This document shows positions 1,116 through 20,202 of a stretch of DNA of 20,587 nucleotides, piece after piece. Source of the DNA: a virus. Below the pieces are notes generated by a model, which saw only the letters and a program-made list of their open reading frames with translations, had not been told where the DNA came from and ran no database searches. Each line of letters starts with the position of its first letter. Position 1 is the stretch's first letter. The stretch lies in the IMG/VR virus record IMGVR_UViG_3300021540_000078; one strand, 5' to 3'. Made by a program: the position numbers and the translations under genes.

Positions 1116-1364
1116 ATGAAAGCAACTATTGAGTATATTGAAAAATCTCAGTATAGGAGTAAAGTGTTAAAAACATTAGCTAATGATACAAAAATCCCTT
1201 CACAAATTGCTAAAGATACCGGCATTGTTCAAAATCATATTTCAAATACTTTGAGGCAGCTAAAAGAGCATGACTTAGTGGAGTGCATTAATCCAGAAGT
1301 TAGAAAAGGTAGACTATATAGATTAACTGATAAAGGTGATGTATTAGTTAAAAATTTAAAATAA
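1116..1364 (+). CDS. Winged helix-turn-helix transcriptional regulator (ArsR/MarR-like, small archaeal type)
   Basis: Sequence RSKVLKTL..TKIPSQIAKDTGIVQNHISNTLRQLKEHDLVECINPEVRKGRLYRLTDKG has the HTH plus wing pattern (YRLTDKG). GGAG RBS at 1104-1107. Confidence 0.85.
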   Translation: MKATIEYIEKSQYRSKVLKTLANDTKIPSQIAKDTGIVQNHISNTLRQLKEHDLVECINPEVRKGRLYRLTDKGDVLVKNLK

Positions 1365-1455: not shown

Positions 1456-1477
1456 TATTAATAACAGGGTGAATTTA

Positions 1478-2071
1478 TTGAAGTATAATACAAGTTTAAC
1501 CAATAGTTCTTTTTGGTTTTTGGAGTCTAAAAAAGTTGCAGAACTTATATTGGAAGATTATTCAAAGAATGAAATTTTAAATGTTGCTTTAAAAGATAAT
1601 ATTTTTCAAGTAGACTCTGAAAATCGTATTAAAAAAATTACAAACAATGTTTATAAGCGATTAAATGTATTTCCAAATGATGTTTTAGAATATTTTGGTA
1701 GAGTTGATGTTAATTCAGCTAAAGTATTTGTTTTAATTTCTATTTTAAAATCAGATAAACTATTTTTTGAATTTATGTATGAAGTATTTAGAGAACATAT
1801 TGTTTTAGGAGATTTAACTCTTAAAAACAAAGATTTTGATATGTTTTTTGATAATAAATCTTATCAAAGTGACATTATTAGTAGTTGGTCTGAAGAAACA
1901 ATAGAACGATTAAAAAGAAGTTATATTACAATGCTTTCAGAAGCAGGATTATTAAATACTTCAAATGTTGAAAAAGAAATTAAATTACCTTTCGTTGATT
2001 TAAAATTTAAGGATATTTTGCTTGAAAATGATTTTGGCCCTTATATTTATTCTATAACTGGTGAAAAATAA
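1478..2071 (+). CDS. brxA: BREX protein BrxA (DUF1819 family)
   Basis: The ORF-track GTG at 1469 lies within the GGGTGA RBS. In-frame TTG 1478 gives MKYNTSLTNSSFWFLESKKVAEL, a typical BrxA N-terminus. Also has DNIFQ, LFFEFMYEV, WSEETIERLKRSYITMLSEAGLL. First gene of the type 1 BREX order. Confidence 0.9.
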   Translation: MKYNTSLTNSSFWFLESKKVAELILEDYSKNEILNVALKDNIFQVDSENRIKKITNNVYKRLNVFPNDVLEYFGRVDVNSAKVFVLISILKSDKLFFEFMYEVFREHIVLGDLTLKNKDFDMFFDNKSYQSDIISSWSEETIERLKRSYITMLSEAGLLNTSNVEKEIKLPFVDLKFKDILLENDFGPYIYSITGEK

Positions 2072-2087
2072 TTGGGGGAAGATTTAA

Positions 2088-2639
2088 TTGGATTTTGAAG
2101 AAAAGTTAAGTACTGTTGAGTTAAAAATAAAAGATCCATCTCTTAAAATAGATTATTATATCTTTGATTACGATCCTAAATATGAACTTAAAGTAAGAAA
2201 TGAAATTAAATATCTAAAGGATAAAATAAATAGCTCTAATATTGGAATTACAATTATTGAATTTGATTTATATGAAATTGTATTGGATATTCTTAAATCA
2301 AAAGGATATCTTGAAAAAACATTCGAATTTGAAAAGAAAAAAGGAAGAAATCTTGCTAAAAAGGCTGTAACTAAAATGCTAAAGTTAAGTATGGATTCTA
2401 ATTTAATTGTAAACTATATTAAAGAAAGATATTCCTCTGATTCAATAATATTTATTACAGGAGTGGGTAAAGCATATCCATTAGTTAGGTCGCATAATGT
2501 TTTAAATAATTTATCTCAACAAGTTGATGATGTTCCAGTGATAATGTTTTTCCCAGGAAAGTATTCCGGTTTGGATTTACTCTTATTTAATACTATTAAA
2601 GATAGTAATTTTTACAAAGCAGAGCCATTAATTAAATAA
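2088..2639 (+). CDS. brxB: BREX protein BrxB (DUF1788 family)
   Basis: Motifs YIFDYDP and FITGVGKAYPLVRSHNVLNNL..VPVIMFFPGKYSG. TTG start after GGGGGA. Lies between brxA and brxC. Confidence 0.92.
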   Translation: MDFEEKLSTVELKIKDPSLKIDYYIFDYDPKYELKVRNEIKYLKDKINSSNIGITIIEFDLYEIVLDILKSKGYLEKTFEFEKKKGRNLAKKAVTKMLKLSMDSNLIVNYIKERYSSDSIIFITGVGKAYPLVRSHNVLNNLSQQVDDVPVIMFFPGKYSGLDLLLFNTIKDSNFYKAEPLIK

Positions 2640-2660
2640 AATTTGGAAAGGTGTTAGTAA

Positions 2661-5600
2661 ATGCAAATTAAAAGCATGTTTGAAAAACCTATTGATAGAA
2701 GAATCAAAGGTGTAATTAAAGTTGGTCAAAAAGATGAAGAAAATATTTACCAAGAGTTAAATGAATATGTAGTAACTGATGAACTTAAAAAACACTTTAG
2801 TGAATTCTTTAGGATTTATAGTCAGGGTGTAGATACTCCAACAGATGATATTGGGGTATGGATTTCAGGATTCTTTGGTAGTGGTAAATCACACTTTCTA
2901 AAAATATTGTCATATATATTAAATAGTGAATTAGCGGTAGAAAGTAAAGAAAACCCAGGTATAATAAGAAGACCAATAGATTTCTTTAAGGAAGATAACA
3001 AGATAAAAGATCCACTTGTAATTGCAAATATGATTAAATCAAGCGATATTAGCACTGATGTAATACTATTTAATATAGATTCCAAAAGTTCAAATTCAGA
3101 ATCTGAAAAAGATAAAATATTGGATGTTTTTGTAAAAGTTTTTAATGAAATGAGAGGTTACTGTACAGAATATCCATTTTTAGCAGAGTTTGAAAAAAAA
3201 TTAGATGAAAAAGAAAAGTTCGAAGAATTTAAATCCACTTTCAAATCTATTAATGGTGATGAATGGGAAGTAGTAAGAGATGACTATTTTTTCATAAGTG
3301 ATGATATTGTTGAAGCTATTGTTAAAATAAACTTCATGAGTGAAGATGCTGCAAGAAACTGGGCAGATAAAGCAGATGAAAACTACAACATATCCATAGA
3401 AAAATTCGCAGAAGAAGTAGAAACATACTGTTCCTCTAAAGGTGAAAACCACCATGTTGTCTTCTTAGTAGATGAAGTTGGACAATACATAGGTGAAGAT
3501 ACAAAATTAATGCTTAATTTACAATCAATTACTGAAGATTTGGGGATTAAATGTCATGGGAAGGCTTGGATAATAGTTACAAGCCAACAAAACATTGATG
3601 ATTTAGTAGATGTAAAAGGAAATGATTTTTCAAAGATTCAAGGAAGATTCAAAACAAGACTATCATTATCTTCAGCAAATGTTGATGAAGTTATTAGAAA
3701 AAGGCTACTTGAAAAAAATGACACAGCAAAAAAAACACTCATAGCTTCTTACCCGCAATTAGAACCGATTTTAAAAAATAACTTTACATTTACAGATAGT
3801 GCAGAAATGAAAAAGTACTCAAATGCAGATGACTTTGCAGCAATATATCCATTCATTCCATACCAATTCAACTTACTTCAAGCAGTATTAACTTCAATAC
3901 GTGAACATGGAGCATCAGGAAAGCACCTTGCTGAAGGTGAAAGATCCATGTTAAAACTATTCCAAGATGCAGCAAAAGCATGGATGAATGAAGACACTAC
4001 AAGATTAATTCCATTTTATGCATTCTATAATCCATTACAAGATTATTTAGATCATTCTATACGTTCAGTATTTATAAAAGCTGCAAAAAATGATAACTTA
4101 GTACATGAATTTGATGATAATGTCCTTAAAGTACTATTTTTAATCAAATACATAAAAGAGCTAAAAGCAAATTTAGATAACATTACAATTTTAATGATTT
4201 CACATTTAGATGAAGACATACCTGATTTAAGAAACAAAATTGTAAAAGTATTAGTAAGATTAGAAAACGAAACATTGATTCAAAAGAATGGTGACACATA
4301 CTCATTTTTAACCAATGAAGAACAAGATATCAATCGTGAAATAAAAAATGAAATAGTAGAATTAGGCGAGGTCTTAAACAAAGCATCTGATGTAATATTC
4401 TACGATATTTATACTGAAAAAAAATTCAGATATGATAACAAATACAATTTTGGATTTAACAAAGCTATTGACAACATAGATAATGGAATGCACAAAAATG
4501 ATATAGGAATAAGAATTATAAGTCCATACTATGATTTTAACATTCAAACATCCCAACAACCTACATTAACAGAAGCGTCTGAAGATGAGAAAATACATAA
4601 TGCATTAAAAGGATTATCTGATAGTAAAAATGAAGTAATATTATATTTAAACAAAGATTTCACAGTATTTAAAGAAATAATGGAAATAATACAAATAGAA
4701 AAATATCTTAAAAAGCATGGAACAGAAATCAAACAATCTCTTAGGGATGCAAAGCAAGAAGAACTGAGAGATAAAAGTTCAAATATTGTAATACTACTTG
4801 AAAAATCATTAAAACAGTCAGAAATATTTGTAAAAGGGTCTACAGTCAATATTGCTGAAAAAAATGCAAAAGATAGAATCAATGATGCATTTGCAGATCT
4901 TGTTTCAAAAGTATATCATAAACTTAAATATATGGACTTCTCACCAGATAAAGATGATATTTTAGTTACAATCAAAGAATCTTCACAAGAGGTACTTTCA
5001 CGTGGAGAGTCAAAAGCAAATAATGCACTTGATGATGTGGACAATTATATTAAAACTCAATCAGATAATTTTGTAAAACCTCCACTAAAAACAATTATGG
5101 CAAGATTCACATCAGCACCATATGGATTTATAGATAATGATGTGGTCTGGTTAATAGCAAAATTATTCTCACAAAAAAGAATTAGCTTAATACTAAATTC
5201 TGAAATAATTTCACTAAAAACACACAAAGCAGAAGAAATATTCAAATACTTAACCTCAAAAGACTACTTGGAAAAAGTATTAGTTGAAAAGAAAAGAGAA
5301 ACCTCACAAAAGAAATTAAAAAGTGCAAAATTAATACTAAAAGATGTATTTGATACAGTAGAAAGCTCAACAAATGATGAAACAATAAAAGATTCATTCA
5401 TAACTCAAGCCAACAAAAAATTAGATACAATTAAAGACTGCTTAACATATTACAGAAACAACGCCAAATATCCTGGGAAACAAGTATTGGAAAATGCAAG
5501 AGAACTGCTAATGGAGACACTATCAATAAAATCAATAGATAAATTCTATGATTATATATTTAAACAAGAGAATGCTTTCTTAGACATGGGGGAAGACACA

Positions 5601-6254
5601 TATAATATACTTCAATTCTTCAAACACCAAAAAATATACTTTGATGATGCAGTAAAAATATATGATATCTTTGAATCCAACAAAAACTTCATCACGGACT
5701 CAGAATTAATAAATACTGCAACACAAATAAAAACAATATTGACAATGGATAATCCTTATTCCAAAATTAAAGATTTACCTGAATTAAGTGATAAATTTTT
5801 AGAAAAACATGATGAATTAATAGCTACAGAAAAATTAACTCCTCAAAATGATATAAAATTAGAATTTGAAGAGGTTCTAGAAGTTTTAAATGAAGATTAT
5901 GAATTCAAAGATGAACTCAAAGCAAAATATGAAACTACATTTAGTAATGACTTCGATAATTTAACTAAAAAACTAAACAATGCAACTGAGATATCTGTTA
6001 TACGAGGAGTAAGCGATGAAGCTTCTAATCTAAGAACAAAATGTATGAATAAAATTGATGAATTTAAGAAATCTAAAAAATCGGGCCATACTGATCCAGA
6101 ACCTAAATCCATGAATCTTTCTATTAAATTCATAGCATCAAAATCCAAAGTAAAAATAGAAAATGAGGAAGATTTAGATAATTTCTTAAATCAAATCAAA
6201 TCTGAAGTAAAAAAACATTTTAATGAATATGATATAATTAATTTAAAACTTTAA
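2661..6254 (+). CDS. brxC: BREX P-loop ATPase BrxC (PglY-like), 1197 aa
   Basis: N-terminus MFEKPIDRRIKGVIKVGQ, Walker A GFFGSGKS (2868-2891), Walker B FLVDEVGQY, SKIQGRF, YPFIPYQF. Size and position fit type 1 BREX. Confidence 0.96.
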   Translation: MQIKSMFEKPIDRRIKGVIKVGQKDEENIYQELNEYVVTDELKKHFSEFFRIYSQGVDTPTDDIGVWISGFFGSGKSHFLKILSYILNSELAVESKENPGIIRRPIDFFKEDNKIKDPLVIANMIKSSDISTDVILFNIDSKSSNSESEKDKILDVFVKVFNEMRGYCTEYPFLAEFEKKLDEKEKFEEFKSTFKSINGDEWEVVRDDYFFISDDIVEAIVKINFMSEDAARNWADKADENYNISIEKFAEEVETYCSSKGENHHVVFLVDEVGQYIGEDTKLMLNLQSITEDLGIKCHGKAWIIVTSQQNIDDLVDVKGNDFSKIQGRFKTRLSLSSANVDEVIRKRLLEKNDTAKKTLIASYPQLEPILKNNFTFTDSAEMKKYSNADDFAAIYPFIPYQFNLLQAVLTSIREHGASGKHLAEGERSMLKLFQDAAKAWMNEDTTRLIPFYAFYNPLQDYLDHSIRSVFIKAAKNDNLVHEFDDNVLKVLFLIKYIKELKANLDNITILMISHLDEDIPDLRNKIVKVLVRLENETLIQKNGDTYSFLTNEEQDINREIKNEIVELGEVLNKASDVIFYDIYTEKKFRYDNKYNFGFNKAIDNIDNGMHKNDIGIRIISPYYDFNIQTSQQPTLTEASEDEKIHNALKGLSDSKNEVILYLNKDFTVFKEIMEIIQIEKYLKKHGTEIKQSLRDAKQEELRDKSSNIVILLEKSLKQSEIFVKGSTVNIAEKNAKDRINDAFADLVSKVYHKLKYMDFSPDKDDILVTIKESSQEVLSRGESKANNALDDVDNYIKTQSDNFVKPPLKTIMARFTSAPYGFIDNDVVWLIAKLFSQKRISLILNSEIISLKTHKAEEIFKYLTSKDYLEKVLVEKKRETSQKKLKSAKLILKDVFDTVESSTNDETIKDSFITQANKKLDTIKDCLTYYRNNAKYPGKQVLENARELLMETLSIKSIDKFYDYIFKQENAFLDMGEDTYNILQFFKHQKIYFDDAVKIYDIFESNKNFITDSELINTATQIKTILTMDNPYSKIKDLPELSDKFLEKHDELIATEKLTPQNDIKLEFEEVLEVLNEDYEFKDELKAKYETTFSNDFDNLTKKLNNATEISVIRGVSDEASNLRTKCMNKIDEFKKSKKSGHTDPEPKSMNLSIKFIASKSKVKIENEEDLDNFLNQIKSEVKKHFNEYDIINLKL

Positions 6255-6265
6255 AGGTGATATAT

Positions 6266-9200
6266 TTGGATAAAAATGCAATTAAAACTTTTGCTATTGA
6301 GTCTCGACGCCAAATGATATTGAGTGTAAAATATCAAGCTAGTTTGATTGGAATTACTGCAGATGGTATTGAAGATCCTATTTCTAGAGCTGAAGGTATG
6401 GAAACCTATGATTATGGTGCTGGAACACATTCTATTTATGATGAAGATATTAAAAAGAGAGAAAGTTTAGTTCAAGAAATTCAAAGTAAAGGTTTTGATA
6501 ATGTCATCGAAGAGGTAGCTTATACTTGGTTTAATAGGATAATAGCTATAAGATTCATGGAAGTTAATGATTATCTCCCAACTAGGACAAGAGTACTTTC
6601 CAGTGAACTTGAAGGCAAAATAGAACCAGATATTGTAACTGAAGCATTAGATTTAGAACTAGATTACTCTTTAGAAGACAAAGATTTAATTTTAAAACTA
6701 AAAGATGAAAATAAATTGGATGAGTTATTTAGATTTCTATTTATTAAACAATGTAATAAATTAAATGAGATACTTCCAGGATTGTTTGAGCAAACTGATG
6801 ATTATATGGAACTTTTATTAAGTATTTCATTTACCGATGAAACTGGAGTTATTAGGCAATTATTAAACTTTATATCTGAAGAAGATTTTGGGAATGATGT
6901 AGAAATTATGGGGTGGTTATATCAATTTTATAACTCTGAATTAAAAGATGAAACTTTTAAAAATATTAAAAAAAATAAAGTATCTAAAGAAAGAATTCCA
7001 TGTGCAACTCAAATATTTACTCCAGATTGGATTGTAAAGTATATGGTTGAAAACTCTGTAGGAAAATTATGGCTTGAAGGTCATTATAATTTAAATCTAA
7101 AATCCAAATGGAGATATTATATAGAACCATCAAATGACGATCAAGTAGAAATTGACTTGAAGATTATACAGAATTCTAAAATGTTAAATGTTGAAGATAT
7201 TTTAATCATTGATCCTTGTATGGGTAGTGGCCATATTCTTGTCTATATTTTTGATTTATTAATGGATATATATGTATCTGAAGGATATACAGTAAAAGAT
7301 GCATCTGTTTCTATTTTAAAAAATAATATTTATGGATTTGACATTGATAAAAGAGCTTATCAATTTGCTTATTTTGCTATTATGATGAAAGCAAGAAGTT
7401 ATAATAGGATAATTTTTGATGAAAATGTAATTCCTAGAGTTTATTCAATTGAAGAATCAAATGGTATCGATGATGAATTAATAAACATATTAGTTTCTGA
7501 ATATCCTGCTATTAAAGATAGTTTGTTATACTTAATGAATACTTTTTATGATGCTAAAATTTATGGTAGTATGTTAAAAATAAAACTTATTGATTATGAT
7601 GAAATTTTAGAAGTTTTAAATAATCTAACGCAGAATTTTACTCAAAATTTAAAATTATTTAAATTTCAAACTCAAATAAATTTATTAAAAAAGATAGTAT
7701 ATCAAGCTAAGTATTTGGCTCAAAAATACCATGTGGTGGTAACAAATCCTCCATATATGAGCATCACAGGCATGTCTCAAGAACTAAGAGACTATTTAAA
7801 TAATAATTATCCTATGACAAAAATGGATTTATTTTCAGTATTCATTGAAAAAGGACTAAACATGGTTAGGGATAATGGTTTTAGTTCTATTGTAACAATG
7901 CAATCTTGGATGTTTTTAGCAAGTTATGAAAAACTGCGTCGTTATTTATCAAAAGAATCTATAATAATCAATTTATTACATATGGATAATATGGTAATGG
8001 GTATAGCTTTTGGAACATCTGCAACAGTATTTAGAAAATTAAATAAACCTAAATTCAGTGGTATTTTTAATCAAGTACTATTTAAAGACATTACTGAAAA
8101 TGGAATACCTTTTGAGTTTCCAGTTCGTTCAAATAGAAATACTATAGCTAACTTTGAAAGTTTTTTTAAAATTCCAGGGCACCCTATTGCTTATTGGATT
8201 GAAGAGGATATGATTAAAATTTTTAGTAACAAAACTATTTTGTCATATTCTTCGACATCTGGGCAAACTATTACTGCAAATAATGATAAATATTTAAGAT
8301 ATTTTTGGGAAGTAGATAAACGAAAAATTAATAAAGAAAATTGGGCTCCTTATGCTAAAGGAGGGAGTTATAGAAAATGGGCTGGTAATCTTTATTATGT
8401 TGTTGACTGGACTCCTGAAGCAAGATATAATTATAAGAAAGGTAAAAGTTCAAGGATACTTCAAGAAGAATTCTGGTTTAAGAAAGCTATTACATGGGGA
8501 TTAGTTACTTCAGATAGGCCAAGTTTTAGAGTTTTACCAGAGTATGCTACATTTGATAAAGGGGGTTCTTCAATCTTTATCAATGACTCTGAATTATATT
8601 ATTATTTTTTAGGTTTGTTAAATAGTAATTTATTTTTGGATGTATTATCGTTATTAAATCCTACGGTTAGTGTAAGAATTAAAGATATACTGTCCATGCC
8701 TGTAATTATTAAAGATTTACAAGATGTCACTGAATTAGTTAAGCAATGTTATACTATTTCAAATGATGATTGGGATGATTATGAAAATAGTTTAAATTTT
8801 TTAAAACATCCATTTTTGATTTTCGAAGGAAATAATCTTTATAACATATATGAAAATTGGGAATCTTATAAAAAGTATAAGTTTGATGCACTGAAGAAAA
8901 ATGAAATAAGATTAAATGAATTGTTTTCTGAAATTTATAATGTTAATTTTGATGTTAATGTGGAAGATAAATATGTTTCTGTTACAAAAGCAAATTATGG
9001 GGCTGATGTTAAATCATTTATTTCATATGCTGTAGGTTGTATGTTTGGTCGTTATAGTTTAGATAATGAAGGATTACAATTTGCAGGAGGAATATTTGAT
9101 TTAAATAATTATTCTAAATTTATTCCTGATGATGATAATATTATTCCTGTTTTAGATACTGAGTATTTTGATGATGATATCGTTGGTCGTTTTGTTGAGT

Positions 9201-9751
9201 TTGTAAAAGTTTGTTTTGGTGCAGAAACTTTAGAAGATAATTTAGATTTTATTGCGGGAGCTTTGAAGAAAAAAGGAAAAACAAGTAGGGAAATAATTCG
9301 TAATTATTTCTTAACTGATTTCTTTAAAAATCATTCACAATCATATCAAAAGCGCCCTATTTATTGGCAATTTGATAGCGGTAAACAAAATGCATTTAAA
9401 TGTCTTGTTTATATGCATAGATATGAACCAGATCTTGTTGCTAGAGTAAGGACAGATTACTTGCATAAAACTCAAAAAGCAATAGAACAGAATTTGACTC
9501 ATTGTGAAAATATTATCAATAATTCTACAAATAAATCAGAAGTTAGTAATGCCACTAAAGATAAATCTAAGTATATCAAACAATTAGAAGAAATTAAGGT
9601 TTATGATGAAGCTTTAAGACATATGGCTACTCAGAATATTGAAATAGATTTAGATGATGGTGTTAAAGTTAATTATGCTAAATTCCAAAAGATTGAGATT
9701 TCTAAAGAAGGAGAAAAGACTAAAAAAATAAACTTGCTTAAGAAAATTTAG
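6266..9751 (+). CDS. pglX: BREX-1 adenine-specific DNA methyltransferase PglX, copy 1
   Basis: The ORF-track GTG at 6257 overlaps the AGGTGA RBS. TTG 6266 gives MDKNAIKTFAIESR. Motifs EEVAYTWFNR, ATQIFTPDWIVKYMVENS, SAM motif DPCMGSGH, catalytic NPPY (7745-7756), C-terminal KRPIYW. Confidence 0.96.
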   Translation: MDKNAIKTFAIESRRQMILSVKYQASLIGITADGIEDPISRAEGMETYDYGAGTHSIYDEDIKKRESLVQEIQSKGFDNVIEEVAYTWFNRIIAIRFMEVNDYLPTRTRVLSSELEGKIEPDIVTEALDLELDYSLEDKDLILKLKDENKLDELFRFLFIKQCNKLNEILPGLFEQTDDYMELLLSISFTDETGVIRQLLNFISEEDFGNDVEIMGWLYQFYNSELKDETFKNIKKNKVSKERIPCATQIFTPDWIVKYMVENSVGKLWLEGHYNLNLKSKWRYYIEPSNDDQVEIDLKIIQNSKMLNVEDILIIDPCMGSGHILVYIFDLLMDIYVSEGYTVKDASVSILKNNIYGFDIDKRAYQFAYFAIMMKARSYNRIIFDENVIPRVYSIEESNGIDDELINILVSEYPAIKDSLLYLMNTFYDAKIYGSMLKIKLIDYDEILEVLNNLTQNFTQNLKLFKFQTQINLLKKIVYQAKYLAQKYHVVVTNPPYMSITGMSQELRDYLNNNYPMTKMDLFSVFIEKGLNMVRDNGFSSIVTMQSWMFLASYEKLRRYLSKESIIINLLHMDNMVMGIAFGTSATVFRKLNKPKFSGIFNQVLFKDITENGIPFEFPVRSNRNTIANFESFFKIPGHPIAYWIEEDMIKIFSNKTILSYSSTSGQTITANNDKYLRYFWEVDKRKINKENWAPYAKGGSYRKWAGNLYYVVDWTPEARYNYKKGKSSRILQEEFWFKKAITWGLVTSDRPSFRVLPEYATFDKGGSSIFINDSELYYYFLGLLNSNLFLDVLSLLNPTVSVRIKDILSMPVIIKDLQDVTELVKQCYTISNDDWDDYENSLNFLKHPFLIFEGNNLYNIYENWESYKKYKFDALKKNEIRLNELFSEIYNVNFDVNVEDKYVSVTKANYGADVKSFISYAVGCMFGRYSLDNEGLQFAGGIFDLNNYSKFIPDDDNIIPVLDTEYFDDDIVGRFVEFVKVCFGAETLEDNLDFIAGALKKKGKTSREIIRNYFLTDFFKNHSQSYQKRPIYWQFDSGKQNAFKCLVYMHRYEPDLVARVRTDYLHKTQKAIEQNLTHCENIINNSTNKSEVSNATKDKSKYIKQLEEIKVYDEALRHMATQNIEIDLDDGVKVNYAKFQKIEISKEGEKTKKINLLKKI
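6375..6456 (+). repeat. 82-bp exact direct repeat shared by the 5' parts of the two pglX genes (second copy 9870-9951)
   Basis: Base-by-base comparison at offset 3495 is identical from ATCCTATTTCTAGAGC to GATATTAAAAA, with mismatches on both sides. Confidence 0.9.
9269..9334 (+). repeat. 66-bp exact direct repeat in the pglX 3' parts (second copy 12782-12847)
   Basis: AAAAAAGGAAAAACAAGTAGGG...TTTAAAAATCAT is identical at offset 3513. Confidence 0.9.
9593..9696 (+). repeat. 104-bp direct repeat with 1 mismatch at the pglX 3' ends (second copy 13106-13209)
   Basis: 53 bp identical, one mismatch (9646 A vs 13159 T), then 50 bp identical, at offset 3513. Confidence 0.9.
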
Positions 9752-9760
9752 GTGATTTCA

Positions 9761-12700
9761 GTGGATAATAATGTTATTAGGTCCTTTGCTATTGAATCTC
9801 GTAGGTCTATGATTGATAGTGTTAAATATCAAGCTAATTTGATTGGTATCAGTTGTGAAGGCATTAACAATCCTATTTCTAGAGCTGAAGGTATGGAAAC
9901 CTATGATTATGGTGCTGGAACACATTCTATTTATGATGAAGATATTAAAAAAAGAAATAATCTAGTTAAAGAAATAGAAAATAGAGGTTATGATGCGGTC
10001 ATAGAAGAAGTAGCTTATACTTGGTTTAATAGGATAATAGCTATTAGATTCCTCGAAGTAAATGATTATCTTCCAACAAGAACAAGAGTACTCTCCAGTG
10101 AAACTGGAGGAAAAACAGAACCTGACATTGTCACAGATGCATTAGAATTAGATTTGGATTATATTAATGAAGATAAACAAGTCATACTTCGCTTAAAAGA
10201 TGAAAATGAGTTAGATGAATTATTTCGATTTTTATTTATTAAGCAATGTAATAAATTAAATGATATACTCCCTGGTTTATTTAAAAAAACTGATGATTGG
10301 ATGGAATTGTTATTAAATATTAATTTTACAAGTGATGATGGAATAATAGCGAATTTAATTAATCAAATACCGGAAGAAGATTTTAGAGAACAAGTTGAAA
10401 TCATTGGTTGGTTATATCAATATTATAATACTGAACTTAAAGAAGATACATTTAAGCATATTAAAAAGAATAAGGTGCCTAAAGATAGAATCCCATCTGC
10501 CACTCAAATTTTCACTCCAGATTGGATAGTAAAATACATGGTTGAGAATAGTTTAGGTAAATTGTGGTTAGAAGAACATTTTGATTTAGAATTAAAAAAT
10601 AAATGGAGATATTATGTTGATTCTGTTCAAGATGATAAAATTAATCAAGTAGATAGTTTGCAAATTCCTAGAAATATAAAACTTGAAGAAATTAAAATTA
10701 TAGATCCATGTATGGGTTCTGGCCATATTTTAGTTTACGTTTTTGATGTATTGATGCAAATATATTTGTCATTAGGATATTCAAAATATGATGCTAGTGT
10801 TTTAATTCTAAATAATAATATCTATGGTTTAGATATTGATGATAGAGCATATCAACTTGCTTATTTTGCTATTATGATGAAAGCAAGACAATATAATAGA
10901 AATATTTTAAAAACAAATATCACCCCCAATATTTTTTCATTTACTGAATCCAATTATTTAAATGAAGAATTTATTTTTTCTCTTGTTAATAAAAATCCTA
11001 AATTAAAAGAAGAATTGTTTTATGTAAAAGAATTGTTTATTGATTCTAAAATTTATGGATCGTTTATTAAACCAAAAAAATTAGATTTAAACCAGATATT
11101 TTCATTAATTAATGAAATAAAATTTAATAAAACTAATTTTGACAATGTTGCATTTAAAAAGGATATTGATATATTAGAAGATATATTGAATCAAATTAAT
11201 ATTTTAAATAAAACTTATGATGTTGTAATAACCAACCCTCCTTATATGGGTAGTAAAAATATGGATAAAAAATTAAATGTCTTTTTAAAGAAAAATTATC
11301 CTAATTCTGATAGAGACCTTTATTCTTCATTCATTGAAAGAGGTTTTGAACTTACAAAAAATAATGGTTTTAATTGTATGGTAACGATGCAATCATGGAT
11401 GTTTACAGCCATATATGAAAATTTAAGAAGAAAAATATTAGAAAATTATACTATTGCTAATTTATTACATTTAGATAATAATGTGATGATTTCTTTTTCA
11501 ACGGCAGCGACAATATTTAAAAATCAATATTTAAAGAATTACGAAGGAATTTATAATTTTATAACTGTAAATGATTTAGATGAGAATAATGTACTTAAAG
11601 ACGACTATAATCTAAATAAAAAATGTTTCAAAGTTAAAAAGAATAGATTTTTTAATATTCCAAGATCTCCTATTGCATATTGGGTTGATGATAATTTAGT
11701 AAATTCTTTTGAATTGGGTGAACCCTTATCAAATTATGGGGAGTTGAAAATAGGTTTATCTACTTCAGATAATACTAGATTCTTACGACATTGGTATGAA
11801 GTATCTAATGTAAAATGTGACTTTTCAACTAACAAAAATAAAACTGATAGTCCCAACAAATGGTTCCCATTAAACAAAGGAGGCAGTTTCCGTAAATGGT
11901 ACGGTAACCATGATTATGTTATAAACTATGAAAATAATGGTTTTGAACTAAAGAATTTTGAAAAATCAGTAATGCGAAATCAAAAATTTTATTTTAAATC
12001 ATCAATTAGTTGGTCTAAAATATCTAAAAAAGTTGCATTTAGATATTATCCTGAAGGGTTCTTATTTGATACTGTTGGAAGTTCATTCTTTGTTGACAAT
12101 GATTTAAAAGATTATATTATTGGTTTTTTAAATTCTAATATGAGTCAAACATTACTTGACTTGTTAGCACCTACATTAAGTTTTACTATAAGCGATATTG
12201 CTTCATTGCCTTTAAAAATTGATTATTCGCATATGGGTGAAATTAAAAAATTAACTAAAATTAATAAAGAGATTTGTAAACATGATTGGGATGATTATGA
12301 ACTTAGTTGGAACTTCTTAAAACATCCTTTATTGAAATTTGATGGTAGTTTAAAAAATAGATTTATTTGTTGGGAAGAATTTAAAGAAACTAAATTTATT
12401 AATCTAAAAAATAATGAAATTAGATTAAATGAAATTTTTTCTGAAATTTATAATGTAAAAATTGATGTTAATGTAAAAACTGAAGATATATCCATTTCAT
12501 TAGCTAATTATGAAAAAGATATTAAATCATTTATTTCTTATGCTGTTGGTTGTATGTTTGGGCGTTATAGTTTAGATAACGAGGGATTACAATTTGCAGG
12601 AGGAAATTTTGATTTAACAAAATATTCTAAATTTGAACCCGATAATGACAATATTATTCCAGTTTTGGATACTGAATATTTTGAAGATGATATCGTTGGT

Positions 12701-13264
12701 CGTTTTGTAGAATTTGTTAAAATCTGTTTTGGAGAAGAAACCTTGGAAGAAAACTTAGATTTCATCGCAGGTGCTTTAAATAAAAAAGGAAAAACAAGTA
12801 GGGAAATAATTCGTAATTATTTCTTAACTGATTTCTTTAAAAATCATGTTCAAATATATCAAAAATGCCCTATTTACTGGATGTTTAATAGTGGTAAACA
12901 AAATGCATTTAATTGCTTAATTTATATGCATAGATATCAACCAGACCTTATTGCTCGTGTAAGAACAGATTATTTACATAAAACACAAAAAGCTATTGAA
13001 CAAAATGTGTCTCATTGCGATAATATAATTACTAATTCCACAAACAAATCAGAAGTTAGTAAAGCTACAAAGGACAAAAATAAATATATTAAACAATTAG
13101 ATGAGATTAAGGTTTATGATGAAGCTTTAAGACATATGGCTACTCAGAATATTGAAATTGATTTAGATGATGGTGTTAAAGTTAATTATGCTAAATTCCA
13201 AAAGATTGAAATATCAATTGAAGGAGAAAAACCTAAAAAGATTAATTTACTTAAAAATATTTAA
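9761..13264 (+). CDS. pglX: BREX-1 adenine-specific DNA methyltransferase PglX, copy 2 (full length)
   Basis: The ORF-track GTG at 9752 overlaps the RBS. GTG 9761 gives MDNNVIRSFAIESR. Same motifs: EEVAYTWFNR, DPCMGSGH, NPPY (11234-11245). No frameshift or internal stop. Confidence 0.96.
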   Translation: MDNNVIRSFAIESRRSMIDSVKYQANLIGISCEGINNPISRAEGMETYDYGAGTHSIYDEDIKKRNNLVKEIENRGYDAVIEEVAYTWFNRIIAIRFLEVNDYLPTRTRVLSSETGGKTEPDIVTDALELDLDYINEDKQVILRLKDENELDELFRFLFIKQCNKLNDILPGLFKKTDDWMELLLNINFTSDDGIIANLINQIPEEDFREQVEIIGWLYQYYNTELKEDTFKHIKKNKVPKDRIPSATQIFTPDWIVKYMVENSLGKLWLEEHFDLELKNKWRYYVDSVQDDKINQVDSLQIPRNIKLEEIKIIDPCMGSGHILVYVFDVLMQIYLSLGYSKYDASVLILNNNIYGLDIDDRAYQLAYFAIMMKARQYNRNILKTNITPNIFSFTESNYLNEEFIFSLVNKNPKLKEELFYVKELFIDSKIYGSFIKPKKLDLNQIFSLINEIKFNKTNFDNVAFKKDIDILEDILNQINILNKTYDVVITNPPYMGSKNMDKKLNVFLKKNYPNSDRDLYSSFIERGFELTKNNGFNCMVTMQSWMFTAIYENLRRKILENYTIANLLHLDNNVMISFSTAATIFKNQYLKNYEGIYNFITVNDLDENNVLKDDYNLNKKCFKVKKNRFFNIPRSPIAYWVDDNLVNSFELGEPLSNYGELKIGLSTSDNTRFLRHWYEVSNVKCDFSTNKNKTDSPNKWFPLNKGGSFRKWYGNHDYVINYENNGFELKNFEKSVMRNQKFYFKSSISWSKISKKVAFRYYPEGFLFDTVGSSFFVDNDLKDYIIGFLNSNMSQTLLDLLAPTLSFTISDIASLPLKIDYSHMGEIKKLTKINKEICKHDWDDYELSWNFLKHPLLKFDGSLKNRFICWEEFKETKFINLKNNEIRLNEIFSEIYNVKIDVNVKTEDISISLANYEKDIKSFISYAVGCMFGRYSLDNEGLQFAGGNFDLTKYSKFEPDNDNIIPVLDTEYFEDDIVGRFVEFVKICFGEETLEENLDFIAGALNKKGKTSREIIRNYFLTDFFKNHVQIYQKCPIYWMFNSGKQNAFNCLIYMHRYQPDLIARVRTDYLHKTQKAIEQNVSHCDNIITNSTNKSEVSKATKDKNKYIKQLDEIKVYDEALRHMATQNIEIDLDDGVKVNYAKFQKIEISIEGEKPKKINLLKNI

Positions 13265-13278
13265 ATGGAGCATTTATA

Positions 13279-15780
13279 ATGGATCTCAGTACTGTGGAAA
13301 ATAAAATTAATGAAATTATCTCAGATTCTGAATATAGGCAAATTATAATGTGGTATGATGAATCTGAAGAATTTAATGAAGAAATAAATAATATCAAATT
13401 AGATAATGCAGAATTATTTATTTTAGATGATGCAAATTGGATTTTTGCTAAATACTATATAGAATCTGAAAATCCGGATACTAATTTTTTAGTTTATGCT
13501 CCTTTTAGAAAACCATCTGATGATGATAATTTTTTGGCTGACATGACTCATTATGCAACTTTATTTTCTGCTGATAAGATTATTATACTTTGTCAAGAAT
13601 TAGAAATTGATTGTAATCGGTTTAAAAATGTTTTAAATTCATATTCTAAGTTTTGGAATGCTTCCTCTAGAATTAAAGCTTTTAAAGAGTTAAATATACA
13701 GGAATATACGAAAAATAGAATTGAATTAGGTATTTTAGCAGTTATTGCTAATGAAAAAACTCTTAATTTTGAATATATTGTTAGAAAAATTATTGTTAAA
13801 CATTTTGAAGGTGATGACTCTATAATTGATAATTATGCTAAATTTGATGTCTTAGATGTATTTTGGGAGTTAGTATATCAAAAGTTTGGTTATATTGAAG
13901 AAAATCCTACTGTGGGTAAATTTACTATTTCGTTAATATTAAATTATACTGCTAGTTTATTTGATGGAACCACTCCTAAATCTTGGAAGAGATTTTTAAT
14001 TGAAGATAAAAATAATCCACGGGTTTTTATTGATAATTTTATGAATAATACTAATTTTATAAGTGTTTTTAATAATGTTTCAACTATTTTAGAAGATAAA
14101 CTCAATATTGCTAATGATATTAAAAATCATAATGTTGACTCTTATATTAGATGTGATAGCTTTAAGGTTTTTGATAGAAAAATAGTTCATCATTATGTTA
14201 ATTTATTGTATGAAACTAAAGAAAAAATGGATTTTGATTTAATATTTGAACTTAGGAAAAAGGGCCATTTCTATGAAGACTTTGAAGATGAATATCAATT
14301 AATTTATTGGGCTAATGAATTTATTGGATTAATCAATGAGTTTCAACGTGAAATTTTACCTGATGATGTAAATGAGTTAATTGATTTATTTACTAATAAG
14401 TTTGTTAATGTAGATAGGACATATAGGAAGTTTTATTATCATTTTGATAGGATTGAGGATGCTGATTATATTGGAAATCTACAATTAATGATTGAAAATA
14501 TGTATTCTAATATATTTTTATTTGAAATAAATCCTAGATTTACTTCTTTAATAGATGATATAAATGATATTTCTCTTACTAAGCAATGGAGATTTTATAA
14601 GAATTACATTTTTAATAAAAAGACTAAAACTATTGTTATTATTTCAGATGCTTTAAGATATGGATGTGCGCTTGAATTAAAAGAGGAATTAGATAAAAAC
14701 CCTACCTGGACAAATGTTATACAGCCAATGTTATCCACTGTTCCTTCATATACTGCTTTAGGTATGGCAGCATTATTGCCTAATCAGGAAATAAAATACG
14801 AAGATGATAATATTTTAGTTGATGGTAATAAATGTAGATCTACTGAAGAGCGTGAAAAGGTATTAAAAGAATATAATCCAAATTCAATTGCAGTACAATT
14901 TGATTATATTAATTCATTAAAAAGACCTCAATTAAGAAGTTTAATAAAAGGTAAAGATTTAATATATGTTTATCATAATCAAATTGATGCAATAGGAGAT
15001 AATAGTTCTACAGAAAATGAAGTATTTAAAGCTTCACAAGAGGCAATTAATGAAATAATTGCCTTTACTAAAAATTTAATTAATTCAGCAAATATTTCAA
15101 GAGTTATTATCACAGCAGATCATGGATATATTTATAAAAGAGGTAATTTAGAAGATAGTAGTAAAGTTGATTTAGATACTATTGATGCTTTTTATAAAAA
15201 TAGGCGATTTTTACTTACAAATGATAAAACGGATATTCCTGGAACTAAATATTTCTCATTGGATTATATCAATAATGATGATATTTATGTGACTGTTCCT
15301 AAAGGAGTAAATGTATTTAAACTTCAAGGAGCGGGTCTAAATTATGTGCATGGTGGTTTGTCATTAGAAGAAGTTATTGTTCCAGTAATTGAAGTTAAGT
15401 CTAAACATGGTGATAGTGGTCAAAGACATGTTGAATTACAATTAATTAGTTCTAATAATAAAATAACTAACTATGATACAATGTTAACATTTTTCCAGAA
15501 AGAAAATGTTTCTAATACTATTTTAACTAGAGAATTTTCAATTTATTTTGAAGATGACAATGGAAATAAAATTTCTAATGAAGTACTAATTTTTGCCAAT
15601 AAAAATAGTGAATATGCGGAGGATAGACAATTTAAAGAGAAATTTACATTAAAAAGAATGAGCTATTCTAAAAATAAAAGGTATTATTTAATTATTAAAG
15701 ATACTACTGATGATTTAGAAGTGAACAGGCATGAATTTATGATTGATATAGCATTTCAAGATGGATTTGATTTCTTTTAG
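13279..15780 (+). CDS. pglZ: BREX-1 phosphatase-fold protein PglZ (type A), 833 aa
   Basis: N-terminal IIMWYDESEEF. Alkaline-phosphatase-superfamily PglZ motifs ISDALRY, PSYTALGMAALLP, YHNQIDAIGD, ITADHG, YVHGGLSLEE. GGAG RBS. Confidence 0.96.
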   Translation: MDLSTVENKINEIISDSEYRQIIMWYDESEEFNEEINNIKLDNAELFILDDANWIFAKYYIESENPDTNFLVYAPFRKPSDDDNFLADMTHYATLFSADKIIILCQELEIDCNRFKNVLNSYSKFWNASSRIKAFKELNIQEYTKNRIELGILAVIANEKTLNFEYIVRKIIVKHFEGDDSIIDNYAKFDVLDVFWELVYQKFGYIEENPTVGKFTISLILNYTASLFDGTTPKSWKRFLIEDKNNPRVFIDNFMNNTNFISVFNNVSTILEDKLNIANDIKNHNVDSYIRCDSFKVFDRKIVHHYVNLLYETKEKMDFDLIFELRKKGHFYEDFEDEYQLIYWANEFIGLINEFQREILPDDVNELIDLFTNKFVNVDRTYRKFYYHFDRIEDADYIGNLQLMIENMYSNIFLFEINPRFTSLIDDINDISLTKQWRFYKNYIFNKKTKTIVIISDALRYGCALELKEELDKNPTWTNVIQPMLSTVPSYTALGMAALLPNQEIKYEDDNILVDGNKCRSTEEREKVLKEYNPNSIAVQFDYINSLKRPQLRSLIKGKDLIYVYHNQIDAIGDNSSTENEVFKASQEAINEIIAFTKNLINSANISRVIITADHGYIYKRGNLEDSSKVDLDTIDAFYKNRRFLLTNDKTDIPGTKYFSLDYINNDDIYVTVPKGVNVFKLQGAGLNYVHGGLSLEEVIVPVIEVKSKHGDSGQRHVELQLISSNNKITNYDTMLTFFQKENVSNTILTREFSIYFEDDNGNKISNEVLIFANKNSEYAEDRQFKEKFTLKRMSYSKNKRYYLIIKDTTDDLEVNRHEFMIDIAFQDGFDFF

Positions 15781-15789
15781 GTGAGATTT

Positions 15790-17835
15790 ATGGTGGAATA
15801 TGATTTAGAAGATGATTTAAATACAAAACTAAAACATTACTTTGATGGTAAAATTGTAAGAAAAGATTTAACTAAAAGAGTTAAAGAAGGCGCTAATGTA
15901 CCTGTTTATGTTTTAGAATATTTATTAGGAAAGTATTGTTCTCAAGATGATGCTTTAGTTGAACAAGGTGTTCAAACAGTTAAAGATATTCTTGCAAATA
16001 ATTATGTTCGCCCAGATGAAGCTCAAAAAATATTATCTAAGCTAAAAGAGTATGGTTCTTATTCTATTATTGATGTTGTTACTGTCAGATTAGATTATAG
16101 TAATGATACGTATTATGCTGCATTTTCTAATTTAGGAATTGCAGGTATTCCTATTAATCCCGATTTTCCACAAAAATATGAAAGACTTTTAGGCGGAAAT
16201 TTATGGTGTATGGTTAATTTAGAATACCAATATGATGAGGCGGACCATAGATCTAACACTATCAAGATTAGAAACTTACAACCAATACAAATGCCAAATA
16301 TTGATTTAGATGATATTTTATTAAATAGAAAATACTTCAATAAAGAGGAATGGATAGATATTCTTTTAAGATCATGTGGTATGGAACCTACACAATTTGA
16401 GGAACGTGTAAAATGGTTATTAATTGCAAGATTAATTCCTTTAGTTGAAAATAACTTTAATTTATGTGAACTAGGTCCAAGAGGAACTGGTAAATCTCAT
16501 ATCTACAAGGAAATTTCTCCGAACTCAATTTTAGTCTCAGGTGGTCAAACAACCGTAGCCAACTTATTTTATAATATGAGAGATAGACAAATAGGTCTTG
16601 TTGGAATGTGGGATTGTGTTGCTTTTGATGAAGTAGCGGGAATTAAATTCAAAGACCAAGATGGAATAGCTATTATGAAAGACTTCATGGCATCTGGTTC
16701 ATTTTCTAGAGGTAAAGAAGAGAAAAATGCAAATGCATCTATGGTTTTTGTTGGAAATATTAATCAAAGTGTTGAGTCATTATTAAAGACATCTAGTTTA
16801 TTTGACCCATTCCCTTCTGAGATGGGTACTGACACTGCGTTCTTTGATAGAATGCATTGTTATATTCCGGGTTGGGAAATACCTAAATACCGACCCGAGT
16901 TCTTCACAAATGATTTTGGATTCATCACAGATTATCTGTCAGAATTCTTTAGAGAAATGAGAAAACGTTCTTTTTCTGATGCATATCAAGAATACTTTAG
17001 ATTAGGTCGTGATTTAAATCAAAGGGATACAATAGCTGTTAATCGTATGGTATCTGGACTTGTTAAGTTAATTTATCCTAATGGGGATTTTGATAAAGAG
17101 GATATTCGTGAAATATTAACTTTAGCATTAGAATCTAGAAGAAGAGTAAAAGAACAACTTAAAAAGATTGGTGGAATGGAATTTTATGATGTTAACTTTT
17201 CATACATTGATTTGGAGGAAAATAGAGATTATCCTGTAGGTGTTGAAGAACAAGCAAGCAGTACTATAATACCTGAAGGTGACCTAAAACCAGGACATTT
17301 GTATTCTGTTGGACCATCAGAAAGTGGAAAACTTGGTGCTTATAAATTTGAAACTGAAATGATGAATGGAACTGGTAAATTTACACCAAATGGTATAGGT
17401 TCTAAAAAAGAAGTTAATGAATCTGTAAAAATAGCTTATCAATATTTCAAGTCAAATGCAAGTTCAATTAGTGGACAGATTTCCTACAAGGATAAAGATT
17501 ATGTAATGCAGGTCAAAGATTTGCATGGTGTTGGGATGACAAATCAATTAACTTTAGCGACATTTATAGCATTATGTAGTGTCGCAACAAACAGACAAGT
17601 ATTACCTTCACTAGCTATATTGGGCAACTTTTCTTTAGGCGGGACTGTCGAAAAAGTGCAAAACCTAGCTGATGCACTCCAGGTTTGTTTGGATAGTGGG
17701 GCTAAAAAAGTATTAATTCCAATGAGTTCCTACGCAGATATTGGATTAGTACCTCCAGAATTATTCTCTAAATTTACAACTATACCATATAACACTCCTG
17801 AAGAAGCTGTTATGAAAGCATTTGGTGTGGAATAA
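15790..17835 (+). CDS. brxL: BREX-1 BrxL (AAA+ ATPase with C-terminal Lon-like domain)
   Basis: The ORF-track GTG at 15781 overlaps GGTGA; ATG 15790 is preferred. Motifs GKIVRKDL, ANVPVYVLEYLLG, Walker A GPRGTGKS (16474-16497), Walker B AFDEV, Lon-like C-terminus GAKKVLIP. Confidence 0.96.
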   Translation: MVEYDLEDDLNTKLKHYFDGKIVRKDLTKRVKEGANVPVYVLEYLLGKYCSQDDALVEQGVQTVKDILANNYVRPDEAQKILSKLKEYGSYSIIDVVTVRLDYSNDTYYAAFSNLGIAGIPINPDFPQKYERLLGGNLWCMVNLEYQYDEADHRSNTIKIRNLQPIQMPNIDLDDILLNRKYFNKEEWIDILLRSCGMEPTQFEERVKWLLIARLIPLVENNFNLCELGPRGTGKSHIYKEISPNSILVSGGQTTVANLFYNMRDRQIGLVGMWDCVAFDEVAGIKFKDQDGIAIMKDFMASGSFSRGKEEKNANASMVFVGNINQSVESLLKTSSLFDPFPSEMGTDTAFFDRMHCYIPGWEIPKYRPEFFTNDFGFITDYLSEFFREMRKRSFSDAYQEYFRLGRDLNQRDTIAVNRMVSGLVKLIYPNGDFDKEDIREILTLALESRRRVKEQLKKIGGMEFYDVNFSYIDLEENRDYPVGVEEQASSTIIPEGDLKPGHLYSVGPSESGKLGAYKFETEMMNGTGKFTPNGIGSKKEVNESVKIAYQYFKSNASSISGQISYKDKDYVMQVKDLHGVGMTNQLTLATFIALCSVATNRQVLPSLAILGNFSLGGTVEKVQNLADALQVCLDSGAKKVLIPMSSYADIGLVPPELFSKFTTIPYNTPEEAVMKAFGVE

Positions 17836-17846
17836 TATTTTCACAC

Positions 17847-17861
17847 TTTTCTATTTTTTTT
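17847..17861 (+). terminator. Oligo-T terminator candidate ending the BREX operon
   Basis: TTTTCTATTTTTTTT starting 12 nt after the brxL stop. Confidence 0.5.
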
Positions 17862-17980
17862 ATATGTTGATATAAATATTGTTCTAAGTCGGTAAAATTA
17901 CAAGTTGAAAGCAATAATGCCTTAGACTTATATCAAAAAGCATTTATATTCGTTTAATCAATTATTAAATAGTGATTAAT

Positions 17981-18379
17981 ATGAATAATGAAAAAATAAA
18001 AACTTATGATGAATGTAATGCTGATGAAAAAGAAGTGCTTGACAGCTTCAGAAAAATGAAGCTATTGTATGATCATGCTAGATTCAGATTACATAAAAAC
18101 AATGTTGAAGATTTAATTAATGATTATGAAACATTAATGAAATTGCGTGAAGATATCCAAGTAAAATACTTTTCAATTTATGAAGAACTTTTGAAAGAAG
18201 ATTTGATTGAAGGTGAACTGGATGCGAGTATCTGGGGAATTACAAGAGAACATGAAACTGATACTTGGGAGTCTGAATTGAGATTAATGAGTGATATTAA
18301 AACTAATTTTGATATTGCAATTAATATGATTGAAAGTGGTGAAGCTGAAAAGAGTATTATTGATGCTGAAAATTGGTAG
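17981..18379 (+). CDS. Hypothetical acidic, probably helical protein (132 aa)
   Basis: ORF track gives 17972. AGTGA at 17971-17975 looks like the RBS, so ATG 17981 is preferred. Stand-alone gene flanked by T-tracts. Hand count 33 D/E vs 17 K/R. Confidence 0.8.
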   Translation: MNNEKIKTYDECNADEKEVLDSFRKMKLLYDHARFRLHKNNVEDLINDYETLMKLREDIQVKYFSIYEELLKEDLIEGELDASIWGITREHETDTWESELRLMSDIKTNFDIAINMIESGEAEKSIIDAENW

Positions 18380-18384
18380 GTATA

Positions 18385-18392
18385 TTTTTTTT
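18385..18392 (+). terminator. Oligo-T terminator candidate
   Basis: T8 run 6 nt after the stop at 18379. Confidence 0.45.
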
Positions 18393-18450
18393 ATGTAATT
18401 TAATTCTTAATTTCAATTATATATAATATAAACACACAATATTGTATTGT

Positions 18451-18493
18451 AAAACGAAAAAACATGGTTTGGTCGCTTCTGTTTTTTAGTTTT
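18451..18493. repeat. Imperfect inverted repeat (13/14 bp arms, 15-nt loop)
   Basis: AAAACGAAAAAACA (18451-18464) vs TGTTTTTTAGTTTT (18480-18493). Confidence 0.7.
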
Positions 18494-18503
18494 CACTAAA
18501 ATA

Positions 18504-18573
18504 GGAAAAATAAGTCAATAATTACTTTTTTTCAAACTGTTCTGTTCTAACCCTTGTCTTGACTTATTTTTCC
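18504..18573. repeat. Perfect 15-bp inverted repeat with 40-nt spacer
   Basis: GGAAAAATAAGTCAA (18504-18518) is the exact reverse complement of TTGACTTATTTTTCC (18559-18573). Confidence 0.9.
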
Positions 18574-18620
18574 AGTACTCCTTTTTTGTGCCGATGAAAG
18601 TAAAAGTCGGTGATAATTTT

Positions 18621-18651: not shown

Positions 18652-18658
18652 AAACCCC

Positions 18659-19426: not shown

Positions 19427-19493
19427 TGTTTCTAATAATTTTAGGGTGGTTGGATTTTGTTTATTTTTATTATAGTTTTTAGTGAGGAGAGTA

Positions 19494-20201: not shown

Positions 20202-20202
20202 T

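Follow-up and report, generated by a model that had tools for sequence, protein, structure and literature searches.

The window, the 20,587-nt stretch of DNA analysed here (IMG/VR record IMGVR_UViG_3300021540_000078), carries a complete type 1 bacteriophage exclusion (BREX) operon with two intact pglX genes in tandem, each encoding a full-length PglX methyltransferase. The two proteins are alike at both ends and differ in the middle, in the part that would read the DNA target. Judging from the sequence comparisons below, the locus probably encodes a dual-specificity BREX-1 that constitutively uses two motifs, and this is the best reading among those weighed. The original prediction had proposed one BREX machine programmed by two specificity subunits. 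The intactness of both genes, their place in a single operon, and the difference in their specificity part stand; co-expression, activity of both enzymes, recognition of two motifs, sharing of partners, and defence are what we infer from them.

The two genes lie on the + strand at 6266..9751 (pglX1, 1161 aa) and 9761..13264 (pglX2, 1167 aa). Both products cover the PADLOC model PDLC02521 end to end (PglX scores of 1360 and 1423 bits, respectively) and match the Pfam family Eco57I/MmeI_Mtase. The open frames extend 5' of the assigned starts, from GTG 6257 for pglX1 and from 9752 for pglX2; the product lengths in public gene calls, 1161 aa and 1167 aa, fit starts at TTG 6266 and GTG 9761. A Shine-Dalgarno-like sequence, AGGTGAT, ends 5 nt 5' of each start (6254-6260 for pglX1 and 9750-9756 for pglX2), and the pglX2 site overlaps the stop codon of pglX1. 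No terminator-like site was found between the two genes. String search places the motifs of gamma-class N6-adenine methyltransferases in both copies, on the + strand: motif I, DPCMGSGH, at 7211-7234 (aa 319) in pglX1 and at 10703-10726 (aa 318) in pglX2, and motif IV, NPPY, at 7745-7756 (aa 497) and 11234-11245 (aa 495), respectively. Two intact, tandem PglX, each with its own ribosome-binding site and both motifs, are therefore present as predicted.

Among 228 alignment columns with conservation of 97% or more across 151 other PglX family members, pglX1 keeps the conserved residue in 226 and pglX2 in all 228. The two misses of pglX1, Q214D and I218M, are within the family range, the other members missing a median of 1 of the 228 columns (90th percentile, 4). 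The ratio of nonsynonymous to synonymous substitution rates (dN/dS) between the copies is 0.08-0.26 in the shared domains. By these measures of sequence constraint, neither copy is decaying. We count the full length of both genes, their co-orientation, their separate Shine-Dalgarno sites, and the retention of conserved residues in favour of dual activity.

The identity between PglX1 and PglX2 is 61% overall and is distributed as a mosaic. It is 72% at aa 1-390, 33-36% at aa 400-480, ~50% at aa 481-595, 38-41% at aa 596-865, and 85% at aa 900-1170. In blocks of 40 aa, it ranges from 25 to 47% between aa ~400 and aa ~880, and from 72 to 95% beyond aa 900. The final 250 aligned residues, for which a hand count had given about 30 differences, contain 32, with no gaps. 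The variable module of pglX1 (7454..8896, + strand; aa ~400-880) is 33-49% identical to pglX2 and spans the insert of the methyltransferase domain (MTD), the second half of the MTD with the loop that reads the sixth base, the target-recognition domain (TRD), and the start of the spacer helix. The corresponding module of pglX2 is at 10946..12409 (+ strand; aa ~399-886). All the strings quoted earlier as examples of divergence were found in the two proteins: GQTITANN/GLSTSDN at aa 669/668, WGLVTSDRPSFR/WSKISKKVAFR at aa 747/754, FDKGGSS/FDTVGSS at aa 766/772, and LNPTVSVRIKDI/LAPTLSFTISDI at aa 800/805. The original prediction placed the divergence after the catalytic core. The specificity region, including the positions aligned with DNA contacts, does differ, but the divergent part is wider than the TRD and begins at aa ~400, in the BrxX-specific insert of the MTD. 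The divergent module matches the segment that is swapped by programmed inversion in relatives (cf. PMC9881135).

The TRD and a loop of the MTD are the parts of PglX that determine BREX specificity (PMC11341690, PMC11842806), in agreement with the original statement that PglX sets the BREX motif. E. coli BrxX is composed of an N-terminal domain (NTD, residues 1-210), an MTD (211-650, with a BrxX-specific insert at 390-500), a TRD (651-837), and a C-terminal domain (CTD, 838-1205) (Drobiazko et al., PMC11842806). Residues R751, K681, D684, Q784, and N823 make base contacts, and the MTD loop 587-601 reads the sixth base pair (PMC11842806). In the phmmer alignment, R751 corresponds to L in PglX1 and R in PglX2, K681 to S and K, D684 to T and S, Q784 to K and T, and N823 to S in both; the residue next to Q784, G785, corresponds to G and V. 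Thus, 4/5 positions aligned to the base contacts differ between the copies, the mapping being a sequence alignment within a variable domain. In addition, the sequence of the sixth-base loop differs, and the loop of PglX2 is one residue shorter than that of PglX1. Therefore, PglX1 and PglX2 very probably read different DNA sequences.

Both proteins have the four-domain architecture of the solved structures (NTD, MTD with insert, TRD, and CTD). The phmmer match of PglX2 to the solved structures of Salmonella PglX and E. coli BrxX (8c45/9ewz) spans its full length, with an E-value of ~1e-228. AlphaFold models of the two PglX have a mean predicted local distance difference test (pLDDT) score of 73-76. 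The pLDDT is mostly 80-95 across the methyltransferase and target-recognition domains, with a few blocks in the 70s and one at 56. In Foldseek searches, both models match solved PglX/BrxX over their full length (E ~1e-72; template-modelling (TM) score, 0.65-0.76). In particular, the PglX1 model superposes on PDB 8c45 with a TM score of 0.76 and the PglX2 model on 8c45/9ewz with TM scores of 0.65-0.71.

Identity as type IIG/IIL (MmeI-like) enzymes does not fit the two proteins. Type IIG/IIL enzymes carry an N-terminal endonuclease domain. The PADLOC model REase_MTase_IIG gives 1147 and 1242 bits, less than the 1360 and 1423 bits of PglX, MmeI aligns to the MTD-TRD part only of both models (TM score, 0.29-0.32), and both genes are inside a BREX operon.

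The system would work as follows. The host is probably a Methanobrevibacter-like archaeon of the ruminant gut or faeces, with one set of BrxA, BrxB, BrxC, PglZ, and BrxL and two complete PglX. Both PglX are most likely translated from one brxA-to-brxL transcript. Their shared NTD and CTD are thought to dock each of them into the BREX complex, and each would carry an unrelated version of the exchangeable middle (MTD insert, sixth-base loop, and TRD). Each PglX would join the common partner proteins, methylate host DNA at a non-palindromic motif of its own, and mark invading DNA that is without methylation of that motif. The constitutive two-motif state would stand as an alternative, with no need of a recombinase, to the inversion shufflons by which most relatives use one version at a time.

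The named relatives of the two PglX are from Methanobrevibacter and Methanobacterium (54-59% identity), the bacterial ones reaching at most 47%; the best relative among the genome- and metagenome-contig matches listed is 60% identical. A PglX match was found in 30/314 Methanobacteriaceae genomes. Second pglX copies are common in these genomes and are mostly partial and inverted, starting at about query residues 417-548. Such copies adjoin a full pglX in six of the genomes (G173, G174, G272, G271, G230, and G191). These silent cassettes are without the first ~420 residues, and their boundary near residue 420 coincides with the onset of the divergence between pglX1 and pglX2. A conserved integrase-like gene of 342-345 aa stands beside pglX in 8 fetched loci with inverted cassettes (L200, 4560-5597; L203, 5117-6145; L096, L103, L110, L111, L112, and L202). 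Seven of the loci share it at 87-94% identity, with 45% identity to its counterpart in L203, and it has weak Pfam matches to Phage_integrase/Phage_int_SAM_5.

The phase-variable pglX shufflon of L. rhamnosus GG swaps the middle of PglX by programmed inversion (PMC9881135). In this shufflon and in the inverted-cassette loci, as in the window, the middle varies from about aa 420 and the termini are constant. However, shufflons carry inverted partial cassettes and a recombinase and express one version, whereas the window has two full, direct genes and neither feature of an inversion shufflon. There is no inverted repeat between the window copies beyond a 28-nt match of 79% identity, and both copies are full length on the + strand. 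The window has no match to the integrase-like gene of the relatives (best tblastn E-value, 0.012), and no scanned window ORF (open reading frame) matches an integrase family. The fetched G001 and G086 loci are likewise without the gene, as are the loci of tandem type.

Further pairs, in other Methanobacteriaceae loci, show the mosaic of the window. G001 has the gene order of the window, brxA-B-C-pglX-pglX-pglZ-brxL, split over two contigs inside the first pglX. Same-strand pglX pairs with the same mosaic are present in L130 and L194, the second L194 copy being cut before the TRD. The protein pairs P0010/P0063 and P0084/P0105 also show it, their pairing resting on equal-sized longest contigs and not on gene order. 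In all of these, N-terminal identity is 0.7-0.9, against 0.25-0.49 for the middle and 0.85-0.93 for the CTD (in G001, 0.72 in the first part of the CTD and 0.93 in the last). The window pair and both protein pairs rank 3-10 of 152 by CTD identity and 62-131 of 152 by TRD identity. We count the recurrence of the mosaic in favour of the dual-specificity reading.

Of the ~160 loci collected by homology, ~2% have adjacent full-length pglX pairs. An evenly drawn set of 401 Bacillota genomes yielded none except in the centre genome, which had been chosen for its pair; this survey scored two candidates per genome, and its frequency is a rough upper bound. One further candidate, L058 (G003:C132, 10001-17175; an uncultured Bacillales metagenome-assembled genome), was rejected as a dual-specificity pair, its copies being ~100% identical. 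This locus has brxA-B-C followed by two adjacent pglX and reflects a recent duplication or an assembly effect.

Other layouts were seen among the relatives. In L198/L199 (G086:C2), an extra full-length pglX stands directly 5' of brxA (pglX-brxA-B-C-pglX-pglZ-brxL), with brxC and pglZ matches each in two pieces. In L200 (G174:C1:1790000-1809999), from a complete 1.85-Mb Methanobacteriaceae genome, a full pglX and at least 4 partial pieces in both orientations lie by brxA-brxB; this looks like a multi-cassette specificity shufflon. L002 (2593-16623), an IMG/VR contig classed as viral, has brxA-brxB-brxC-pglX-pglZ followed by another pglX, which is cut off by the contig end; the match of the first pglX is interrupted from ~9940 to 10519. 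In L118 (2-3808), the closest fetched locus (PglZ 77% and BrxL 92% identical to the window), unrelated sequence replaces the first ~150 residues of PglX, and the open frame reaches the contig start.

The main rival, to which we give a modest but real chance, is that a single copy is active, the other being a spare that is silent or has a regulatory role only. A precedent is the type 1 locus of L. paracasei Zhang, which like the window is annotated with two methyltransferase genes. There, N6-methyladenine is lost on inactivation of pglX only and not on inactivation of the second methyltransferase gene, which adds no methylation (PMC10164179; Hui et al. 2022). We compare this system without regard to gene layout and take it, by analogy, as a warning that second copies may be silent. 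The second pglX copies of most Methanobacteriaceae loci are non-expressed cassettes as well, but they differ from the window genes in being inverted and without the ~420 N-terminal residues. Both window copies are full length, have their own Shine-Dalgarno site and start, and stand in direct orientation inside the operon. The two missed conserved columns of pglX1, together with its want of a close orthologue, would suit a spare copy; against this stand the family range of such misses and the low dN/dS in the shared domains.

RNA-library data also bear on this rival. Contigs from two metatranscriptome libraries match, without mismatch, parts unique to pglX1 (e.g. 6874-7230, 7681-8023, and 8304-8695) and parts unique to pglX2 (10060-10389 and 11123-11425). 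These contigs on both copies are compatible with transcription of both pglX and give a weak hint of it.

The dual-specificity reading has points against it besides the L. paracasei Zhang case. The RNA-library contigs may be DNA carry-over, and contigs give no expression level. For pglX1, no homologue of more than 64% identity was found in a set of 5.8 billion proteins, which leaves no close orthologue by which to judge the long-term conservation of the pair. Finally, Salmonella PglX likewise has the lysine aligned with K681 and reads another base there. Therefore, the motifs cannot be predicted, and identical specificity of the two copies keeps a slight chance; the prediction of motifs from contact residues was abandoned for this reason.

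The number of synonymous substitutions per synonymous site (dS) between the copies is ~0.7-1.35 along the genes, codons 41-120 excepted. The middle-module tree puts pglX1 with P0123-P0126 and pglX2 with P0004-P0007, two distinct clades (local support, 100%); in the CTD tree, the copies are close but not sisters. The orthologues of pglX2 are 84-85% (P0004-6) and 72% (P0007) identical to it, uniformly along the length. With dS in this range and the middle modules in different clades, the sequences indicate that the pair is not a recent duplication. The idea of a simple duplication followed by divergence fails on the same grounds, with dS at ~1.

The longest exact run between the copies is an 82-nt tract on the + strand, 6375..6456 in pglX1 and 9870..9951 in pglX2. 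It is within codons 41-120, where dS is 0.32, and it is not conserved at other loci. The tract and its surroundings are likely a gene-conversion patch, as far as the sequences tell. Two other signs of conversion were rejected. The C-terminal exact tracts (66, 53, and 50 nt) are 92-97% conserved in other Methanobrevibacter pglX. The run-contig variants at 12802-12829 and 9160-9181 fall where the copies are identical and come from other pglX genes.

As a second rival, the pair could be mainly a substrate for recombination, in which exchange between the direct-repeat ends deletes a copy or makes hybrids, giving a slow, recombinase-free switching with the two-gene state as one allele. This proposal is in line with the low-dS patch and with the exact tracts located at the gene ends (82, 66, 53, and 50 nt), of which the 82-nt tract is specific to the window pair; the C-terminal tracts, in contrast, are conserved family-wide. 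A PglX2-like partial protein, P0157, starting at aa 422, is present on another contig, and the pglX2 orthologues appear to be single-copy. On the other hand, no joint that deletes a copy was found in the contigs of two DNA runs (contigs hide rare variants), the same two proteins stand unchanged on ~15 contigs, and a direct-repeat deletion is irreversible. We regard this explanation as improbable, and it is in any case compatible with both copies also being active.

A third possibility is that PglX1 and PglX2 are obligate partners in one restriction complex, e.g. one per DNA strand or orientation, such that defence needs both. In the type V BREX of Haloarcula hispanica, the one BREX with two methyltransferases that has been tested, BrxX1 and BrxX2 independently methylate GTAYCCG and GACCCC, and yet deleting either BrxX abolishes defence (bioRxiv 10.64898/2026.04.28.721311). 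Went et al. speculate that the BREX complex may use two PglX monomers. However, a single PglX is the rule in nearly all working type 1 systems, the orthologues of pglX2 seem to occur alone, and there is no sign of heterodimer-specific surfaces. An obligate partnership is accordingly a long shot. The type V result still affects the expectation, raised with the original prediction, that a phage must escape both specificities. This is uncertain by analogy, because either deletion abolished the type V Haloarcula defence and L. paracasei Zhang has a second methyltransferase gene that does not methylate.

The type V system is nevertheless the functional model for the dual-specificity reading. It is archaeal, like the window, and has two paralogous methyltransferases, which are 53% identical (61% in the window). 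It differs in having two BrxC, a BrxHII helicase, no BrxL, brxX genes separated by brxZ, and N4-methylcytosine modification, whereas the window has one brxC, a brxL, no helicase gene, adjacent pglX, and NPPY enzymes of the N6-adenine type. By analogy, the window BREX may work like type 5, of which it is not a member.

That the tandem is a false join of two strain alleles of one pglX is all but dismissed: the window is a metagenome contig and conserved gene ends do break assemblies (the G001 contigs end inside the first pglX), but the sequence 5' of pglX2 is the pglX1 3' end and not the brxC 3' end, both proteins occur together on 7-8 European Nucleotide Archive (ENA) and 7 Joint Genome Institute (JGI) contigs of separate assemblies, the stretch turns up in many runs from 19 studies, and G001 has the same gene order. 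In addition, at least 12 metagenome runs (animal faeces, sheep, and bovine, including one 2025 sheep run) contain at least half of the words sampled from the stretch, and two DNA runs mapped on the operon cover all bins. The locus is real, not an assembly artefact.

The rest of the operon is that of a type 1 BREX. The window is 26% G+C and contains a single long series of genes on one strand. Pfam and PADLOC identify a complete, co-oriented system at 1469-17835 (+ strand), brxA-brxB-brxC-pglX1-pglX2-pglZ-brxL, which bears out the BREX-1 context predicted for the pair. The genes are brxA (1469..2071; Pfam BrxA, E 3.5e-54; PADLOC BrxA, E 1e-65), brxB (2088..2639; Pfam BrxB, E 4.3e-41; PADLOC BrxB, E 6e-58), a single-copy brxC (2661..6254; Pfam BrxC 4th, wHTH, and helical domains; PADLOC 1316 bits, full length), pglZ (13279..15780; Pfam PglZ, E 9.5e-52; PADLOC PglZ, 913 bits), and brxL (15781..17835; Pfam BrxL_N, BrxL_ATPase, and Lon_C; PADLOC BrxL, 1091 bits), all on the + strand. 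A terminator-like hairpin lies at 17824-17847, after these genes.

Canonical type 1 BREX, reportedly described by Goldfarb et al. 2015, is that of E. coli HS, Salmonella, B. cereus, and Acinetobacter. The window has the same six genes (brxA, brxB, brxC, pglX, pglZ, and brxL) in the same order, with PglX of NTD-MTD-TRD-CTD architecture that superpose on 8c45/9ewz. The canonical layout has one pglX, whereas the window has two complete pglX between brxC and pglZ, in an archaeal host (Methanobacteriaceae). The second pglX is a deviation in copy number and not a different kind of BREX.

A small winged-helix (ArsR/HxlR-like) gene stands 5' of brxA at 1116..1364 (+ strand), with matches to Pfam HTH_27/HTH_5/HxlR that only partly pass the cut-offs and a match to a PHROG transcriptional regulator (E 1.8e-9). 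From its position only, it is a possible regulator of the BREX operon. A sigma-70 promoter scan of the window gave the same counts as shuffled sequences, and the host is archaeal. An ORF 3' of the operon (18659-19426, 255 aa) has no Pfam match; its aa 168-254 match phrog_13750 (E 6e-12), with weak further matches to HNH/zinc-finger PHROGs. The small same-strand ORFs around the operon (166-1092 and 17972-20544) have no family matches except for a TFIIB-type zinc ribbon at 19482-19751. The window has no match in phage or plasmid collections; its three IMG/VR matches are only 38-39% identical.

Two further genes of a relative's locus, L203, were noted. Its BrxL (15810-19442, 1210 aa) has ~550 extra N-terminal residues fused to BrxL_N and the BrxL ATPase; the extension weakly matches DUF4145 and contains a DpnI_C domain ('Dam-replacing HTH', E 2e-15). 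By these domain matches, the protein may be a methyl-adenine reader fused to BrxL. A PIN-domain gene (12540-12941; E 1.8e-17) lies between the partial pglX cassette and pglZ.

In the literature searched, we found no paper describing two full pglX that are adjacent and co-oriented in a type 1 BREX. Within that literature, the full tandem pglX would be a new feature of type 1, and the concept of two methyltransferases is already known from type V. We suggest, tentatively and at somewhat less than even confidence, that tandem co-expressed PglX represent a strategy in its own right among type 1 systems, one that recurs and needs no recombinase, in which the core takes two interchangeable specificity subunits, the NTD and CTD form the docking surface, and aa ~400-880, including the MTD insert, form the cartridge. 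The docking surface is assigned to the NTD and CTD because these stay alike within a locus, as in the CTD ranks above. The BrxX-specific MTD insert had previously been guessed to bind partners.

If both enzymes are active, one type 1 BREX core would be programmed by more than one specificity subunit simultaneously, which would widen the range of viruses and offer an alternative to phase variation. The parts that are alike within the locus, the NTD and CTD, are candidate contacts with BrxB, BrxC, and PglZ. The swapped part, comprising the MTD insert, the sixth-base loop, and the TRD, outlines a portable specificity module that would be useful for engineering BREX specificity. As far as we found, the locus would also be the first lead to a testable BREX-1 in methanogens, gut archaea whose defence against viruses is little studied.

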